A stretch of 64,000 bases of DNA from an uncultured Verrucomicrobiae bacterium. Lineage in GTDB: Bacteria; Verrucomicrobiota; Verrucomicrobiia; Limisphaerales; Palsa-1400. The position numbers were made by a program, and so were the translations under genes. The stretch spans positions 1,216,001 through 1,280,000 of the forward strand of contig CAVXRD010000002.1 of NCBI GenBank assembly GCA_963764165.1. Reading direction: 5' to 3'. The notes under the pieces are model-generated. The model ran no database searches and was not told the origin of the DNA. It saw nothing but the letters and a program-made list of their open reading frames with translations. Positions 46,313-53,422 of this stretch are shown piece after piece. Every line of letters begins with the position of its first letter. The stretch's first letter is position 1.

Positions 46313-46760
46313 CCGTCACATGCCGTCACAAAATGGGTGACGCCGCTCAAGCAGAGTTCCGTCGCGGCCTGTATGGAAGCTTGGGTTTTGTGACGGCTGC
46401 GTGTGACCCTTTGTGACGGTAATTGTGAGGTTCCTCAACGTTTTCGGTGGAATAGAATCCGGGCACTCGGCCACGAATTAAAACGAGCGACGGGGCGGCT
46501 GCGAGCCACAGCTCGCGCCCCGTCGCGGTCGGACAGCGAAACGCTCATTTACAACAACTTACCCATGAATGGCTTACAACTATTGGATGGCCCTGAGATG
46601 AGGCAGCGAGATTCCCCTGGATTACTGATGTCTGCACCTCCTCAGAGGTTTGGTTGCTCGCAACCGGGTTTACACGAACTTCTATTCCACTGAAAACGTG
46701 GAGGAACCAATTGTGACGGACTAAGTGGTTGATTGACAACAGTGTGACGGGTGTGACGGC
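46313..46760. repeat. TGTGACGG / CCGTCACA short-repeat array
   Basis: TGTGAC at 46389, 46402, 46412, 46712, 46743 and 46752; inverted CCGTCACA at 46313 and 46323. Confidence 0.8.
46429..46708. mobile_element. 280-bp non-autonomous MITE, probably ISL3-derived
   Basis: 28-bp TIRs GGTTCCTCAACGTTTTCGGTGGAATAGA / TCTATTCCACTGAAAACGTGGAGGAACC (2 mismatches); perfect 8-bp duplication AATTGTGA. Confidence 0.85.
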
Positions 46761-46862
46761 TTTTTAGGGGGGTGTGTATACATATGCAGCCCAAACGACC
46801 CATTTTAGCGACTCTGAATGAAACTGGTCAAAAAGGGACGAGGGGCCTCAGATTCCAACTTA

Positions 46863-46910
46863 GTCAGCAAATCTCACCAAATCTCACCAAATCTCACCAA
46901 ATCACACCTG
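46863..46910 (+). repeat. 10-nt tandem repeat (ATCTCACCAA)n
   Basis: gtcagcaa atctcaccaa x3 atcacacctg. Confidence 0.85.
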
Positions 46911-47036
46911 TTTTTTGTCTCATCGAAACAAAAGCCAAAGCGGTGCCTTGCGTGCAATTTTTCGATCACATTGTATTTTCCAACGTGAGATTAAAGGAGG
47001 GCGATCTCGCAGTCGCGAAGCGAGGTAGCAACGGTG

Positions 47037-47981
47037 TTAACTGGCAAGCTGGAAATTGGGATTTTTCAGCAATCGGTTCATAAGGAGGATAAGCTTTCGC
47101 ATGGCGGCGGTGAGGGCGACCTTTGGTTTTTTGCCGTTATTCCGCAATCGCAAATAGAACTCTTTGAGAATGCGGTCGCAGCGAACGGCGCTTAGGGCGG
47201 CCATGTAGAGGGCTCGGCGGATGCCGGCCCGGCCGCCGCCGATGTGGCGCTGGTCGGACTGTTGGCCGCTATCGCTGTTGTAAGGGGCCAGGCCAGCCAA
47301 GGCGGCGCAGGAGCCATCCTCGAGAGTGCCCAGTTCGGGCATTTCAGCCAGGACGCAAACGGCGGTGACGGAGCCGACGCCGGGGATGGTCTGCAGGCGC
47401 TGGGCTTTTTTCTTCAAGTCGGCGTCCTTGTCCATGAGCGAGGCAATTTCCCGCTCGCACTGGGCGATTTGTTTTTCCAGCAGAGCGATGATCTGGCGGG
47501 ACTGTTTTTGGGAAAAGCTGTCGGCATAATGTTCTGCGTGATTGCGTTCGACGACCAGCTGTTCAACCACTTGGCGGCGGCGCCTTGTCAGTTGAGTCAA
47601 TTGCTGCTGGGTGGGAGAGGCCTGGGGCGTGGGAGCGGGCTGGAGGGCGGCTCCGTAAGCGGAGAGCACGGCAGCATCGATGGGATCGGACTTGGCGCGC
47701 TTGCCTTTGGCTTTGGCGAAGTGACGGACCCGTCCGGCTTCGACCAGGCTCAGAGGGATGGCGGCTTCATGGAGAGCGGCCAGCACAGGCTGCTCGTAGC
47801 CGCCGGTGGCTTCGCAGACCACTTGGGCGCTTGGATGAGACTTTAAGAGGCCGATCAATTTTTGATGGCCTTTGGCGTCATTGGAGAGGGCATGGGATTG
47901 AGCGGCCAGGTGAAGCTGCAAAGAGGACTTGGCAACGTCGAGGCCGACGAAGAGAATGGAAGGCGAATTGGTCTGACTCAT
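47037..47981 (-). CDS. IS110 DEDD recombinase/transposase
   Basis: GLDVAK, CEATGGYE and KSDPIDA (DEDD); TIPGVG; AGLAP...DSG (catalytic Ser); ALTAAMRKL. Confidence 0.95.
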   Translation of the reverse strand: MSQTNSPSILFVGLDVAKSSLQLHLAAQSHALSNDAKGHQKLIGLLKSHPSAQVVCEATGGYEQPVLAALHEAAIPLSLVEAGRVRHFAKAKGKRAKSDPIDAAVLSAYGAALQPAPTPQASPTQQQLTQLTRRRRQVVEQLVVERNHAEHYADSFSQKQSRQIIALLEKQIAQCEREIASLMDKDADLKKKAQRLQTIPGVGSVTAVCVLAEMPELGTLEDGSCAALAGLAPYNSDSGQQSDQRHIGGGRAGIRRALYMAALSAVRCDRILKEFYLRLRNNGKKPKVALTAAMRKLILLMNRLLKNPNFQLAS

Positions 47982-48195
47982 ACTTGTAAAATTCGAGCCG
48001 CGTTGTTAGACGCGCTCAGGCAACGGTTCGAGTTTGGAACAATGGGCGGGAATGGAACACGCTACCTTACGGAGCTCGCTGCCGAGACAGCGACTTCAAG
48101 GGACGCACGTTCTCAAACCCGCCGCCGCCTCTGCGCCTGCAGGCGCAGAGGCGGCATCAACTTGGAGATCCGACATCGGATTACCAAGAAGAATA
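47976..48195 (-). ncRNA. Putative bridge RNA of the IS110 element (ends approximate)
   Basis: 5' 32-nt perfect hairpin (48124-48155); target loop GCGTCCCT...hairpin...AAGGTAG; donor loop ACCGTTGC...hairpin...TACAAG. Confidence 0.85.
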
Positions 48196-48208
48196 AGAAG
48201 AAGATACA

Positions 48209-48284
48209 AGGGACGCCTCGCCGAGGCGTCCGGTTGCGCGTCAATGGCACCCCACGCCGGACGCCTCGGCGAGGCGTCCCTACC
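48209..48284. repeat. REP doublet family A; the GGT(AG) head of its left arm is displaced to 47024-47028
   Basis: agggacgcctcgccgaggcgtcc...ggacgcctcggcgaggcgtccctacc. Confidence 0.9.
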
Positions 48285-48562
48285 TTGGAATTAAGATGCG
48301 TCTGCCCTGTGTTTCGTTTCCCCTTGCATTTCGCAGGCTTTGCGCTACAGTCATCTTTGCCTGAACGCCGCGTGTGCGGCTGTTCGTTGAGGCTGAGAAA
48401 CGAAAGTTAACCGTGCAACCTAACCTTTAACCTCTGTTGCCACGCAACGCGGTTTGGTAAGGCAATGGAGTCTTCGCCGGCTGTTCGGCCGAGTCTCCCG
48501 CTCGTTTTCATTCAAGTCATCAAATGCGTTAATGTCCGTTAGTCCGTTTTTATAAAAGTATT

Positions 48563-50233
48563 ATGCTCACGATGGAAGAAGCCCTGAAGCAAAGCCCTGC
48601 CTCCTTTGCCACAGGTCAGATTGTCAAAGGCACTATCATTGAAGTCCGTCCCAAAGAAGTCCTCGTCGATATCGGTTACAAGAGCGAGGGCGTCATCCCC
48701 GGCAACGAGTTCGACGACATCAAAACCGTCAAAATCGGCGATGAAATCGATGTCCTCATCGAGAAACTCGAAGACAAAGAAGGCATGGTCATCCTCTCCA
48801 AGGAAAAGGCCGAATTTAAGAAAAACTGGGACAAAATCCTCACCATTTGCAACGAAGGCGGCACCATCATCGGCCGCGTCAAGGCTGCGGTCAAAGGCGG
48901 GTTGCTGGTCAACATCGGCGTGGAGGCGTTCCTGCCGGCCTCGCAGATTGACATCATTCCGCCGAAGAATCTGGCCCAATTCATCGGCAATACCTACGAT
49001 TTCAAAGTCGTCAAGATCAACCAGGAGCGCCAGAACATCGTTCTGTCCCGCCGCGAATTGATCGAGCAGCAGCGCAACGACAAGCGCGTCAAGCTCCTGA
49101 CGGAAATGACTCCGGGCGACATCCGCAAGGGCACCGTCAAGAACATTACCGATTTCGGCGCGTTCATCGATTTGAACGGCATCGACGGCTTGCTCCACAT
49201 CACCGATATGAGCTGGGGCCGCGTCGGGCATCCCTCGGAAATCCTCAAGGTTGGCCAGGACATCGACGTCGTTGTCCTCGACATCAACAAGGAAAAGGAA
49301 CGCGTCAGCCTCGGCCTCAAGCAAAAGTTGAGCAATCCGTGGGAAAACATCGACGCGAAATACCAGGTCGGCAACAAGGTCAAAGGCAAGGTTGTCAACC
49401 TCGTTCCTTACGGCGCGTTTGTGGAATTGGAACCGGGCGTCGAAGGTTTGGTGCACGTCACCGAATTGTCCTGGACCAAGCGCATCGCAAAGCCTTCGGA
49501 TGTGTTGAAGCCCGACCAGGAAATTGAAGCGGTGGTGCTGGGCATCAATCGCGACGAGCAGAAAATCTCTCTCGGCGTCCGCCAGCTCGAAGCCAATCCT
49601 TGGGATCGCGCCATCGAGAAATATCCGGCCGGCACCAAGGTCAAAGGCAAGATTCGCAATCTGACCAGCTACGGCGCCTTCATCGAATTGGAAGAAGGCC
49701 TCGACGGCATGATCCACGTCTCGGACATTTCCTGGACGCGCAAGATCAATCATCCTTCCGAGGTATTCAAGAAGGGCGACGACGTCGAAGCAGTGGTGCT
49801 CGAAGTCGACAAGACCAATCAGCGCATCTCGGTTGGTGTCAAGCAATTGACCATCGATCCGTGGAGCAACATCGATCAATTCTACAAGGTTGGCGACCTC
49901 GTCACCGGCAGCGTCACGAAGCTCGCGAGCTTCGGCGCGTTCGTCGGATTGCAGCACGACATCGACGGCCTGGTGCATATCTCGCAAGTCAGCGAAGAGC
50001 GCACCGACAAGATCAAGAACGTGCTCAAGGTCGGCCAGGAAGTGACCGCGCGCGTGATCAAGATCGACAAGGGCGAGCGCCGCATCGGCCTGTCCATCAA
50101 GGCCGCCGCCTACTCGCCGGAGCAGCTCAAGGCCGAGCAAGCCATCCTCGATTCGCTCAAGCCGGGCGAAGACCTGGTGGCGCTGCAGCACGCCTTCGAC
50201 GCCGCGGACGAAACCGCCCGCAAAGACAGCTAA
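48563..50233 (+). CDS. rpsA: 30S ribosomal protein S1
   Basis: Six S1 repeats (DIGYKSEG, FLPASQID, DGLLHITDMSW). Confidence 0.97.
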   Translation: MLTMEEALKQSPASFATGQIVKGTIIEVRPKEVLVDIGYKSEGVIPGNEFDDIKTVKIGDEIDVLIEKLEDKEGMVILSKEKAEFKKNWDKILTICNEGGTIIGRVKAAVKGGLLVNIGVEAFLPASQIDIIPPKNLAQFIGNTYDFKVVKINQERQNIVLSRRELIEQQRNDKRVKLLTEMTPGDIRKGTVKNITDFGAFIDLNGIDGLLHITDMSWGRVGHPSEILKVGQDIDVVVLDINKEKERVSLGLKQKLSNPWENIDAKYQVGNKVKGKVVNLVPYGAFVELEPGVEGLVHVTELSWTKRIAKPSDVLKPDQEIEAVVLGINRDEQKISLGVRQLEANPWDRAIEKYPAGTKVKGKIRNLTSYGAFIELEEGLDGMIHVSDISWTRKINHPSEVFKKGDDVEAVVLEVDKTNQRISVGVKQLTIDPWSNIDQFYKVGDLVTGSVTKLASFGAFVGLQHDIDGLVHISQVSEERTDKIKNVLKVGQEVTARVIKIDKGERRIGLSIKAAAYSPEQLKAEQAILDSLKPGEDLVALQHAFDAADETARKDS

Positions 50234-51527: not shown

Positions 51528-52802
51528 ATGTTGCGGGGCCTAATTTCTGACGATTTCCTTCCATTTGGGAAGTTGGACTTCGAAATTCCGCCGGTTGAGA
51601 ACAAGCCTGCCGATTTGGCTGAAGTCCATTTGATTACCGGCGTAAATGGCACAGGCAAGAGCAGACTTCTGTCCGTACTGGCTGCGGGCTTGGGAAATGT
51701 TACGCCTCTGCTTGACAGGACGAAAGGGGTGAACAATCGCTTGTTCGCGGTCACGGATAAATCTCCGTTTCCAGACCGCCCTGAATTACGTGGAAGTTTC
51801 CATTCATCGGGATGGGCGCGCTTTGGAGTAGACCCAAATCACAATGGTGTACAGTGGCACGACGGCAGGCCGGTTGCCGAGTGGTTTGGTTCAGTTCCAG
51901 CATTTGCTTACCGATGTACCGCTTATGTGGCCGATGCAGAAGTCAAGACCTTGGCTGATGTTCCGCGACCGCAGCGCTCACTCTGTCTTTCTTTTGATCG
52001 CGCCAATGAAGGCTCTTCTCGTCTCCTGCAGGCGATTATGAATTTGAAAGTCCAAGCCGCCGTCGACTCCATGGGGCCCAGCGGTGCGGGGGGCATTACG
52101 CGCTCCGTGAAACTGATCAGCACGCTAGAAGCTTCGGTAAGCAAAATCACCAAAACAAACTTCGTATTCGCGCCGGAAACGAAACCGAATGTCTCGCTCC
52201 GCGTCATCTGGGGCAACCGAAAATTGTCATTTTCCGTTCTGCCAGATGGCTTGCGGTCAATCATCGGATGGTTAGCTCACGCGCTTGTGATGATGGATTT
52301 ATACGTGCCGTCGGACCAGGACCCGACTGATTGTGAGGCTGTATTTTTGCTGGATGAAATCGAAGGTCATTTGCATCCAGCTTGGCAAAGACGGGTCTTG
52401 CCCGCTTTCCAGCACCTTTTCCCAAAGGCGCAAATGTTCGTGGCAACACATTCTCCTTTCGTGATTTCCTCGTTGACGCATGGATGGATTCATTGCCTGA
52501 CTGTCCAGCCGGACGCCACAGTTAAAATCGAGAAACCGAAGCCCGCGAGCGAAGGCTCAAGCTACATCGATGCCGTGGAAGAAATTATGGGGGTGAAGGA
52601 ATGGTACGATGACGACAGCGAAAAGCTTCTGGCGGACTTCCGAGCCAAGCGAGATGCGGCTTATCAGGGAAATATTGAGGCCGAGAAGCAGGCCCGTGCG
52701 ATCGCGGCGCAAATTAGCGAACGCAGCATGGAGTTGTCTTTCATAATGGGGCGTGAGTTAAAGCAGATGGATCGTCAGTTGGAAAAGCCTGCCGCAAAAT
52801 GA
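51528..52802 (+). CDS. ABC-type/AAA ATPase, Septu PtuA-like
   Basis: GVNGTGKS Walker A, LPDG signature, LLDEIEGHLHPAWQ Walker B, ATHSP. Confidence 0.82.
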   Translation: MLRGLISDDFLPFGKLDFEIPPVENKPADLAEVHLITGVNGTGKSRLLSVLAAGLGNVTPLLDRTKGVNNRLFAVTDKSPFPDRPELRGSFHSSGWARFGVDPNHNGVQWHDGRPVAEWFGSVPAFAYRCTAYVADAEVKTLADVPRPQRSLCLSFDRANEGSSRLLQAIMNLKVQAAVDSMGPSGAGGITRSVKLISTLEASVSKITKTNFVFAPETKPNVSLRVIWGNRKLSFSVLPDGLRSIIGWLAHALVMMDLYVPSDQDPTDCEAVFLLDEIEGHLHPAWQRRVLPAFQHLFPKAQMFVATHSPFVISSLTHGWIHCLTVQPDATVKIEKPKPASEGSSYIDAVEEIMGVKEWYDDDSEKLLADFRAKRDAAYQGNIEAEKQARAIAAQISERSMELSFIMGRELKQMDRQLEKPAAK

Positions 52803-53422
52803 GGAAATTCGTCCGAGGGGAAGTCCCGGAATGCCTCGTCAGTCAATGGGAGGAGTGGGGCTTGGCTTGGGAGAGACGGCGCATCGATAATTCCGGCGCG
52901 CCATTTTACTGGCCCACAGTTGGAGGCAGCCTGTTGAATCAATTGTTGTTGCCTCTGCTTAAGGCGCAAACACAAGACCATTGCTCGTTCTGCGACAACT
53001 TTCCGGTAAGTCCGCCTTCGATTGATACGATCGAGCATTTCCGACCCAAGTCACGCTTTCCAAGACACGCATTTGCGTGGGGCAATTTGTATTACTGCTG
53101 CATGTTTTGCCAGCAGAAGTCGGACGATTTTCACGAAGCTCTCCTCCAGCCTGATGCTCCCGAATATGACTTTTACAAATATTTCCGCTGGGACTTTACG
53201 CTAGGCACTTTAGAGGTCAACCAGCTTGCCACTCCCGAGAATCAAGAACGGGCTAGACAAACAATACTGATTTACGGGCTGAATACCCGACATCCATTCT
53301 TGCGAAGATTAGCGGCGAAGCGGCGGATGCAAGGCCCTAATGATCCAATCGACGAATTTGCTTATCGAGACTTTGTGGAGGGGCCAGCGGGCGGCGGTCT
53401 TGAGCATGAAAATCAAACGTGA
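52799..53422 (+). CDS. HNH endonuclease, Septu PtuB-like
   Basis: CSFCD...IEHFRPKS...WGNLYYCCMFCQ; ATGA overlap with the ATPase. Confidence 0.82.
   Translation: MRKFVRGEVPECLVSQWEEWGLAWERRRIDNSGAPFYWPTVGGSLLNQLLLPLLKAQTQDHCSFCDNFPVSPPSIDTIEHFRPKSRFPRHAFAWGNLYYCCMFCQQKSDDFHEALLQPDAPEYDFYKYFRWDFTLGTLEVNQLATPENQERARQTILIYGLNTRHPFLRRLAAKRRMQGPNDPIDEFAYRDFVEGPAGGGLEHENQT

Follow-up and report, generated by a model that had tools for sequence, protein, structure and literature searches.

An IS110-group bridge-recombinase element at the GTAG REP of a verrucomicrobial genome, with a palindromic 5' stem-loop that may mediate RNA self-pairing

The window considered here is a stretch of 64,000 nucleotides from an uncultured Verrucomicrobiae bacterium (assembly GCA_963764165.1, contig CAVXRD010000002.1, positions 1,216,001 to 1,280,000), and all positions below refer to it. 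Its minus strand carries, at 47027-48210, an element of 1,184 bp that encodes a recombinase and, in its noncoding left end, a predicted bridge RNA. A preliminary description, made from the letters alone, had read it as an IS110 recombinase whose RNA is programmed against a repetitive extragenic palindrome (REP) of the host. On the evidence set out below it is almost certainly an intact, recently copied bridge-recombinase element of the IS110 group. Its ends, copies, target, catalytic residues, guide covariation and RNA stems are all read from sequence. The RNA also has a perfectly palindromic 5' stem-loop, whose possible role takes up the second half of this account. The features, all on the minus strand, are listed in the order in which that strand reads.

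48259-48283: intact partner REP, GTAG plus a 21-nt palindrome, with 182 exact copies in the genome (REP scan)
48211-48231: REP arm containing the left target GGCGTCC (48211-48217), the inner half of a REP doublet (sequence, REP scan)
47027-48210: the complete IS110-group element from one core to the other, 1,184 bp (ends from an identical second copy with other flanks)
48209-48210: left CT core (sequence and copy comparison)
48204-48208: right donor TGTAT, at the left end of the element (sequence and covariation)
48201-48206: predicted -10 box TATCTT (sequence reading)
about 48160-48188: additional 5' hairpin, stem-loop 0 or SL0 (fold; hairpins there in 63 of 102 left ends)
48124-48155: 5' stem-loop 1 or SL1, a perfect 32-nt palindrome with centre CCTGCAGG, candidate RNA dimerisation site (sequence, orthologue loops, dimer energies)
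48045-48123: target-binding loop (TBL), its outer stem pairing 48108-48123 with 48045-48059, with a flipped A (covariation)
48099-48106: left target guide (LTG) GCGTCCCT, target positions 2-9 (covariation)
48062-48068: right target guide (RTG) AAGGTAG, positions 14-8 (covariation)
48060-48061: handshake bases CG of the TBL, of which C can pair with donor G7 (51 of 53 orthologues)
47976-48033: donor-binding loop, DBL (fold and covariation)
48020-48027: left donor guide (LDG) ACCGTTGC, positions 1-8 (sequence)
47983-47992: discontinuous right donor guide (RDG), AU at 47991-47992, a bulge, and ACAAG at 47983-47987 (covariation)
47037-47981: recombinase open reading frame, 314 residues, with D15/E57/D99/D102, S238 and wedge Y259/M260/L263 (domain search, alignments, fold)
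47042-47047: predicted -35 box TTGCCA, which only the circle would bring to 17 nt from the -10 box (sequence reading)
47029-47035: left donor ACCGTTG, at the right end of the element (sequence)
47027-47028: right CT core (sequence and copy comparison)
47022-47026: right target ACCTC, the rest of the split CTAC end of the REP (copy comparison)

The ends at 47027 and 48210 are fixed because the genome holds exactly two copies, identical over all 1,184 bp, that sit in different flanks (the second is at G000:C1:326814-327997). Each begins and ends with CT and shows no further target duplication. The left end measures 227 nt (47982-48208), and 8 nt separate the stop codon from the right core, the lengths of left end, reading frame and element being those first described. 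A long left end with the RNA and a short right end are the mark of IS621-like members of the IS110 group. Elements of the IS1111 group have a long right end that contains the RNA, and subterminal inverted repeats of 7-17 bp (PMC11187229); assignment to that group is ruled out by the 8-nt right end and the RNA in the left.

The recombinase passes the cut-offs of both family domains, PF01548 (74.9 bits against 29) and PF02371 (69.2 against 21.3), as well as that of NF033542, the NCBIfam model for IS110 (208.7 against 140). Among solved structures IS621 and ISCro4 come closest to it, in sequence as in predicted fold, at about 30% identity; the predicted fold matches that of IS621 with an E value of 1e-19. 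D15, E57, D99, D102 and S238 align with D11, E60, D102, D105 and S241 of IS621, the four acidic residues being invariant in all 74 aligned proteins and the serine present in 72, while the wedge residues are retained in most. The family assignment thus stands, with catalytic residues intact. A match to SidA (18 bits against a cut-off of 60) was set aside as coiled-coil noise.

Both copies lie at the CTAC end of a REP of the GTAG type, as had been predicted, the second in just the expected target, GGCGTCC-CT-ACCT, so that the first refuting condition of the preliminary description, other copies at unrelated sites, did not arise. The reconstructed empty sites are GGCGTCC-CT-ACCTC for the copy in the window and GGCGTCC-CT-ACCTT for the other. 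AAGGTAG, proposed as the reverse complement of CTACCTT, therefore matches the second site in full and mismatches the site in the window at position 14. The repeat has GTAG 5' of a short palindrome and occurs in the genome in 182 exact copies, in 233 allowing two mismatches, and in 51 inverted doublets, as is characteristic of GTAG-family REPs; of 24 genomes from the same family, 8 have it as well. None of the ten Y1_Tnp loci in the genome, which is 97% complete, has the REP within about 1.5 kb, so that no REP-associated tyrosine transposase was found beside it. The 13-mer encoded by the guides, GCGTCC-CT-ACCTT, has 117 perfect sites in the genome, where composition would lead one to expect 0.28, and 92 of the 117 follow a near-canonical REP arm. 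The logic of this targeting is already known, and the element is not new in kind, because IS621 likewise goes to REPs at CTAC: it inserts at their CCTAC end, ATCAGGC-CT-AC (PMC11208160). The right flank, 46600-46950, is repeated elsewhere in the genome (78-100% matches on contigs C1-C4) and contains a short AAATCTCACC tandem repeat at 46870-46905.

All seven motifs listed in the preliminary description are present on the minus strand at the coordinates given there, and their proposed arrangement, LTG-RTG-LDG-RDG around a CT core, was examined in orthologues. From genomes and metagenomes 198 loci were collected, of which 25 lacked the donor-loop motif and 63 had both ends and flanks; these 63 comprise 54 distinct target loops and 53 distinct targets. 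Guide positions were taken from an alignment of left ends made independently of the target, and 5,000 shuffles served as controls. The RTG matches its own flank at positions 10 through 14 in 52, 51, 49, 43 and 41 of the 53 (shuffled fractions 0.26-0.35), and the LTG at positions 4 through 7 in 41, 37, 40 and 42; no shuffle reached any of these counts. The counts are conservative, since roughly twelve rows are out of alignment or displaced by one. An alignment-free guide score agrees with the position-wise test (7.06 of 9 and 6.52 of 7, against 5.51 and 4.64 in the control). The layout thus has the bottom-strand guide first and target-loop guides that covary with the target, over positions 2-7 on the left and 10-14 on the right, while in the element of the window the donor loop matches the element's own junction.

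Some details of the guides require revision. Target positions 1, 15 and 16 give no covariation signal (position 1 matches in 12 of 53, shuffled 0.22), so a 9-nt LTG was rejected in favour of one of 8 nt: GCGTCCCT does lie at 48099-48106 as left target plus core, but it covers positions 2-9 rather than 1-9. On this basis the clade reads some 13 nt, against the natural 11 of IS621, with the read-out displaced to the right. On the donor side TACAAG is present, but its sixth base falls in a variable bulge, and donor positions 13-14 pair instead with AU at 47991-47992. A contiguous 6-nt RDG was rejected, position 13 matching in just 24 of 53. Position 11 matches in 51 of 53 (reached by 2 of 5,000 shuffles) and position 14, read discontinuously, also in 51 (reached by none), and the upstream RDG base changes from A to C in all four elements with donor G14. 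The first handshake base of the TBL could pair with donor position 7 in 51 of 53; at the first position of the DBL handshake covariation is weak (18 of 53, against 0.19), and at the second positions there is none among the 53 orthologues.

Two observations concern the collection itself. One locus, L001, 66% identical, comes from a record labelled Bifidobacteriaceae, either because it was mis-binned or by transfer; relative to L077 it carries an additional A in the right target guide, and this guide matches its own site poorly. In viral contigs the exact donor-loop pattern of the clade had no match, and a looser pattern, with 120 loci, was discarded as essentially chance; 18 of the 140 viral-contig loci from two scans held a recombinase, all 18 from one scan.

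The fold of the left end also bears out the proposal. The region 47976-48165 is more stable than its shuffles (z = -5.6; none of 200 equally stable), and any two of the three long guides co-occur by chance in only 42 of 100,000 first-order resamplings of the left end. Across 38 aligned sequences 27 of 38 stem pairs show changes on both sides, exceeding all shuffles and slid controls; in the outer stem of the TBL the 14 pairs are 97% paired and 12 have two-sided changes. No bridge-RNA family of Rfam matched the region, which drew five weak hairpin hits, all far under the gathering score. The stems TCGCTG/CAGCGA and GAGCGCGT/ACGCGGCTC are where they were placed within the left end, and the order of its parts is as listed, except that SL0 had been missed. 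Many SL0 loops are GNNA, that is, tetraloops have been selected in these RNAs. The closing stem of the DBL, ACTCG (48029-48033) with TGAGT (47976-47980), spans the ATG at 47981-47979, as had been noted, and the ATG is kept in this closure in 34 of 38 sequences. Since the donor loop closes over the ATG, a recombinase bound to its own transcript could block its translation. Two loci depart from the common layout. In L033 (G478), which is 64% identical and has an open reading frame, the palindrome and the entire TBL are missing, and 76 nt separate the core from the LDG; L219 (G816), with one internal stop, has neither 5' hairpin. Perhaps these are elements with a donor loop only, which rely on a target loop supplied in trans.

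Several observations weigh against taking the element for a working one with the guides described. LTG positions 2 and 3 are weak (24 and 27 of 53, reached by 16 and 71 of the 5,000 shuffles), and none of the 53 elements matches its LTG at all of positions 1-7. The handshake bases of the DBL, U and A, the latter the first base of the start codon, cannot pair with target C7 and C6, which in IS621 would leave strand exchange with less help. The element occupies only 2 of some 270 GCGTCCCTAC sites. The contigs of four DNA runs, which contain only fragments of the element and none spanning it, yielded six short-sided joints and neither circle nor empty site, a result that speaks neither for nor against the element. 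Moreover, the CT cores and left-donor matches of the orthologues were selection criteria of the script and hence are no evidence, so that the independent evidence consists of the covariation on the target side, positions 11 and 14 of the RDG, and the junction promoter described below. That the element is decayed, its guide-like matches being relics or chance, would suit a copy number of only two, but is very improbable given two copies 100% identical over 1,184 bp in different flanks, an intact reading frame with its catalytic residues, and guide matches that covary across 53 orthologues.

How such an element would work can be sketched by analogy with IS621 (PMC11208160, PMC11208158, PMC13626964). 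It would form a circle with the junction ACCGTTG-CT-TGTAT, and the junction would build a sigma-70-type promoter, TTGCCA-17-TATCTT, from which a bridge RNA of about 215 nt would be transcribed through the left end. A junction -35 box matching TTGACA in at least four of six bases occurs in 35 of 54 junctions and in 2 of 52 host flanks. Recombinase dimers would bind the two loops of the RNA, the TBL pairing with the 13-nt target GCGTCC-CT-ACCTT through its 8-nt left and 7-nt right guides and the DBL with the circle junction. Target and junction would then be recombined at CT by a tetramer whose DEDD/S238 sites are composite, the CTAC end of the host's GTAG REP supplying the targets, with 117 perfect sites in intergenic repeats. 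Less surely, the palindromic 5' stem-loop may pair with its counterpart in another bridge RNA, and the paired RNAs would bring the TBL of one and the DBL of the other into one synaptic complex.

This last step derives from the 5' stem-loop itself. What had been described as a perfect 32-nt hairpin at 48124-48155 is indeed there, but it is in fact a loop-less palindrome, equal to its own reverse complement, loop included. An SL1 hairpin was obtained from 99 of 102 distinct left ends, and the loop contains a self-complementary 4-mer in 85 of the 99 (8.0 expected), or in 12 of 20 distinct loops (2.7 expected). Control hairpins show no such excess (SL0, 5 of 63 with 6.4 expected; the stem-loop of the TBL, 5 of 92 with 10.8), while the DBL's own stem-loop has a smaller one (22 of 70 with 10.3). 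The SL1 loops are centred on TGCA in 65 cases, GGCC in 9 and TTAA in 1, and nine larger loops carry an off-centre GGCC, TGCA or AGCT. The arms vary freely, with 77 distinct 5' arms and two-sided changes at all 14 stem pairs, and the outer pair of the loop goes from UA to GC in 6 of 38 sequences. A protein tree of 72 elements with 2 outgroups (FastTree), in which some nodes are weak, shows GGCC reappearing in separate subclades while the background is TGCA. A left end was obtained for 13 of the 22 held-out loci, and a hairpin ahead of the TBL for 12; 10 of those 12 have a self-complementary loop, with the new centres CATG (six related rows) and GCGC. Five different centres are thus known. All four self-complementary dinucleotides occur as their inner two bases, for which pairing inside a single hairpin is impossible. 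A self-complementary loop has been kept through compensatory change, as in kissing loops. Over 57 sequences the predicted gain on dimerisation is -16.9 kcal/mol, against -4.9 with randomised loops, and of these 57 SL1 32-mers, whose length is nearly fixed at 16+16, 40 form perfect palindromes in which G-U pairs are few.

The pattern may extend beyond the clade. The 5' stem-loop of IS621 has GGCC in its loop (PMC11208160, supplement). In published covariation alignments of 2,201 and 5,511 rows, counted by term, with terms chosen post hoc and rows that are related, GGTGGCCACC occurs 158 times, GACTGATCATC 260, CGGATATCCG 42, GGCGGCCGCC 27 and GATGGCCATC 24, while six one-base variants of GGTGGCCACC total 7; all displayed occurrences of these terms fall in the 5' stem-loop.

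We tentatively put first the reading that SL1 is an RNA homodimerisation module, in which loop-loop kissing followed by an extended 32-bp duplex tethers two bridge RNAs. It would account for the self-complementary loops of SL1 beside controls (SL0 and the TBL stem-loop) that lack the excess, for arms free to vary while the loop moves between palindromes, for the recurrence of GGCC in separate subclades, for the off-centre palindromes of nine larger loops, and for a predicted dimer energy that exceeds that of randomised loops. The GGCC of IS621 and the frequency of palindromic terms in the published alignments point the same way. There is also a place for such a module. In the structures of IS621 the TBL and DBL come from two RNA molecules and the complexes pair up, and the 5' stem-loop is invisible in the structures, conserved in shape and without an explained function (PMC11208158). 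It is conceivable, if with rather more doubt than confidence, that the 5' stem-loop of IS621-type bridge RNAs in general is a selected self-pairing module, of which the loop-less 32-nt palindrome is an extreme form. Self-pairing might then serve, though we say so with like reserve, to bring target and donor loops to one tetramer when, as in a natural transposon, RNA levels are low.

A good deal speaks against dimerisation. When the 5' stem-loop of IS621 is deleted, recombination falls only slightly (PMC11208158), and in human cells split RNAs outperform a single RNA and the stem-loop adds little (10.1101/2025.05.14.653916), although in another study direct splitting of the bridge RNA lowered IS621 activity (PMC13396178). 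The loops of the DBL stem-loop are also in some excess. Eight distinct elements of the virus collection include two with a clear palindromic loop, three clearly without and three that are AT-rich and unclear, and the palindrome is missing from L033, together with the TBL, and from L219, together with the other 5' hairpin. Related sequences do not count as independent, a single CATG clade making up 6 of the 10 held-out positives, and the search terms for the published alignments were picked after viewing. A loop of 4 nt is tight for kissing, and 6 of 21 long host hairpins have palindromic centres (two of them this element; 3 of 14 distinct). Many SL1 sequences, finally, are perfect DNA palindromes, which would permit a role at the level of DNA.

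Perhaps SL1 is instead an ordinary hairpin, stabilising or processed by RNase III, with a loop kept by descent or by tetraloop stability. The same TGCA in 65 of 99 loops would fit this, as would the tetraloop selection seen in SL0, with its many GNNA loops. Yet the loop passes from palindrome to palindrome, through five centres, far more often than to GNRA or UNCG, and we regard an ordinary hairpin as unlikely, though a serious contender. An action of SL1 as DNA seems to us improbable, whether as a symmetric site, as a cruciform or hairpin in the circle or a single-stranded intermediate, or as a side effect of fold-back repair, which makes inverted repeats perfect. The 40 of 57 perfect palindromes with few G-U pairs are what a constraint on both strands predicts, and the nearly fixed length of 16+16 is consistent with it; but the off-centre palindromes in larger loops and in IS621 make no DNA palindrome, and the unconserved arms speak against a sequence-specific operator. 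Template-switch repair perfects the arms or inverts a spacer; it is not known to render loops self-complementary.

In the literature searched we found no IS110 paper on kissing or dimers of bridge RNAs; the ISCro4 structure paper and subscription papers, which lay outside that scope, may bear on the claim. The available sections of PMC11208160, PMC11208158, PMC13626964, PMC13604230, PMC11187229, PMC13396178 and 10.64898/2026.10.21.760802 contain no passage on self-complementarity or a relevant palindrome. Elsewhere, self-complementary loops on stable stems, with an extended duplex possible on paper, are found in the dimerisation initiation site (DIS) of HIV-1, SL2 of Moloney murine leukaemia virus and the hatchet ribozyme, and palindromic kissing loops of 2, 4 and 6 nt are on record (PMC7357161). 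By contrast with these sites, the SL1 loop is mostly of 4 nt and lacks flanking purines, and here dimerisation is only predicted.

The same genome holds another element aimed at this repeat. At L217:1034-2470 approximately (G000:C2:1738010-1741228, near 1,739,000) an unrelated recombinase, oriented oppositely, sits at the same CT of the REP, GGCGTCC-CT-ACCTTT. It exceeds the NF033542 cut-off and has no significant pairwise similarity to the recombinase of 47027-48210. The left end of its element is short, the subterminal repeats are imperfect, and the right end contains CGTCCCT, a stem and then AAAGGTAG; as read from its sequence, the guide order is that of IS1111 and seekRNA elements. These target guides are nearly identical to those of the element in the window, and the two appear as a case of convergent programming to one CT. 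A fourth PF02371 match in the genome, L214 (G000:C1:191790-195029), is a divergent IS110-like frame. Elsewhere in the window, 51528-53422 (plus strand) encodes an AAA ATPase followed by an HNH-like protein, resembling PtuA/PtuB of Septu-type defence, both under curated cut-offs. The noncoding stretch 48357-48480 (plus strand) is 79-90% conserved in relatives, has no Rfam match, and is possibly a structured leader; downstream lies an open reading frame, 48563-50233, whose product to our eye resembles ribosomal protein S1.

Among known systems IS621 of E. coli (PMC11208160, PMC11208158, PMC13626964) is the nearest. The two share a RuvC-coiled-coil-Tnp protein with DEDD, serine and a hydrophobic wedge, an RNA in a left end that starts CTTGTAT, the LTG-RTG-LDG-RDG order, the CT core, the discontinuous RDG (PMC11208158), the handshake position (a concept taken from the IS621 work, PMC11208158), the junction promoter and insertion at the CCTAC end of REPs. 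They differ in protein (about 30% identity) and donor (here ACCGTTG-CT-TGTAT), in the left target guide (8 nt, positions 2-9, here; 9 in IS621) and natural right guide (7 nt here, 4 there), and in the RNA, which is longer here (about 215 nt predicted, against 177) and has two 5' hairpins. In the present element the 5' stem-loop is a loop-less palindrome, the DBL overlaps the start codon, and a 5-residue gap stands where R27/H28 of IS621 touch the DBL stem-loop. Identity with IS621 in the strict sense is ruled out by the 30% protein identity and the lack of covariation at target position 1. ISCro4/IS622 (10.1101/2025.05.14.653916; PDB 9t56) shares family and fold (sequence E 1.6e-34, Foldseek E 2.8e-19); it is 88% identical to IS621 (10.1101/2025.05.14.653916), and the present element is distant from both. 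ISPpu9 and ISPpu10 of Pseudomonas putida (PMC12288879, 10.64898/2026.03.19.712850) are likewise IS110s that home to palindromic intergenic repeats, but differ, as described, in host, target and RNA layout. ISPpu10 also reads a stem-loop in its target (10.64898/2026.03.19.712850), which the REP arm 5' of the present target could provide. IS1111-group/seekRNA elements (PMC11187229) share the recombinase superfamily and RNA-guided targeting but have the RNA in the right end, subterminal inverted repeats and a reversed guide order, a description that fits L217.

The claim of a compact natural RNA-guided recombinase with a new target and donor specificity was correct as to IS110 membership and overstated as to novelty: besides the insertion of IS621 at REPs, longer RTGs are known in natural orthologues (PMC11208160), and a 2026 survey predicted 32,190 bridge RNAs with many variant folds (10.64898/2026.10.21.760802). 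The clade's donor junction had no hit in the available published covariation alignments, and that survey may include the clade. The element alone is one more natural bridge recombinase that follows a well-described pattern. What is new is the variant read-out of its clade and, above all, the selected self-complementary loop. With the clade come 53 target loops reprogrammed in nature and a read-out of 13 nt that is shifted rightwards. That two unrelated RNA-guided elements are aimed at the same CT within one REP also shows that repeats have been adopted convergently as places to insert. If the self-pairing loop is real, it links complexes of two RNAs with a conserved 5' stem-loop that has no known job in IS621. 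Engineers could then use complementary, non-palindromic loops to force the pairing of target loop with donor loop, and such loops could disfavour donor-donor complexes, which have been reported as a source of off-target events.

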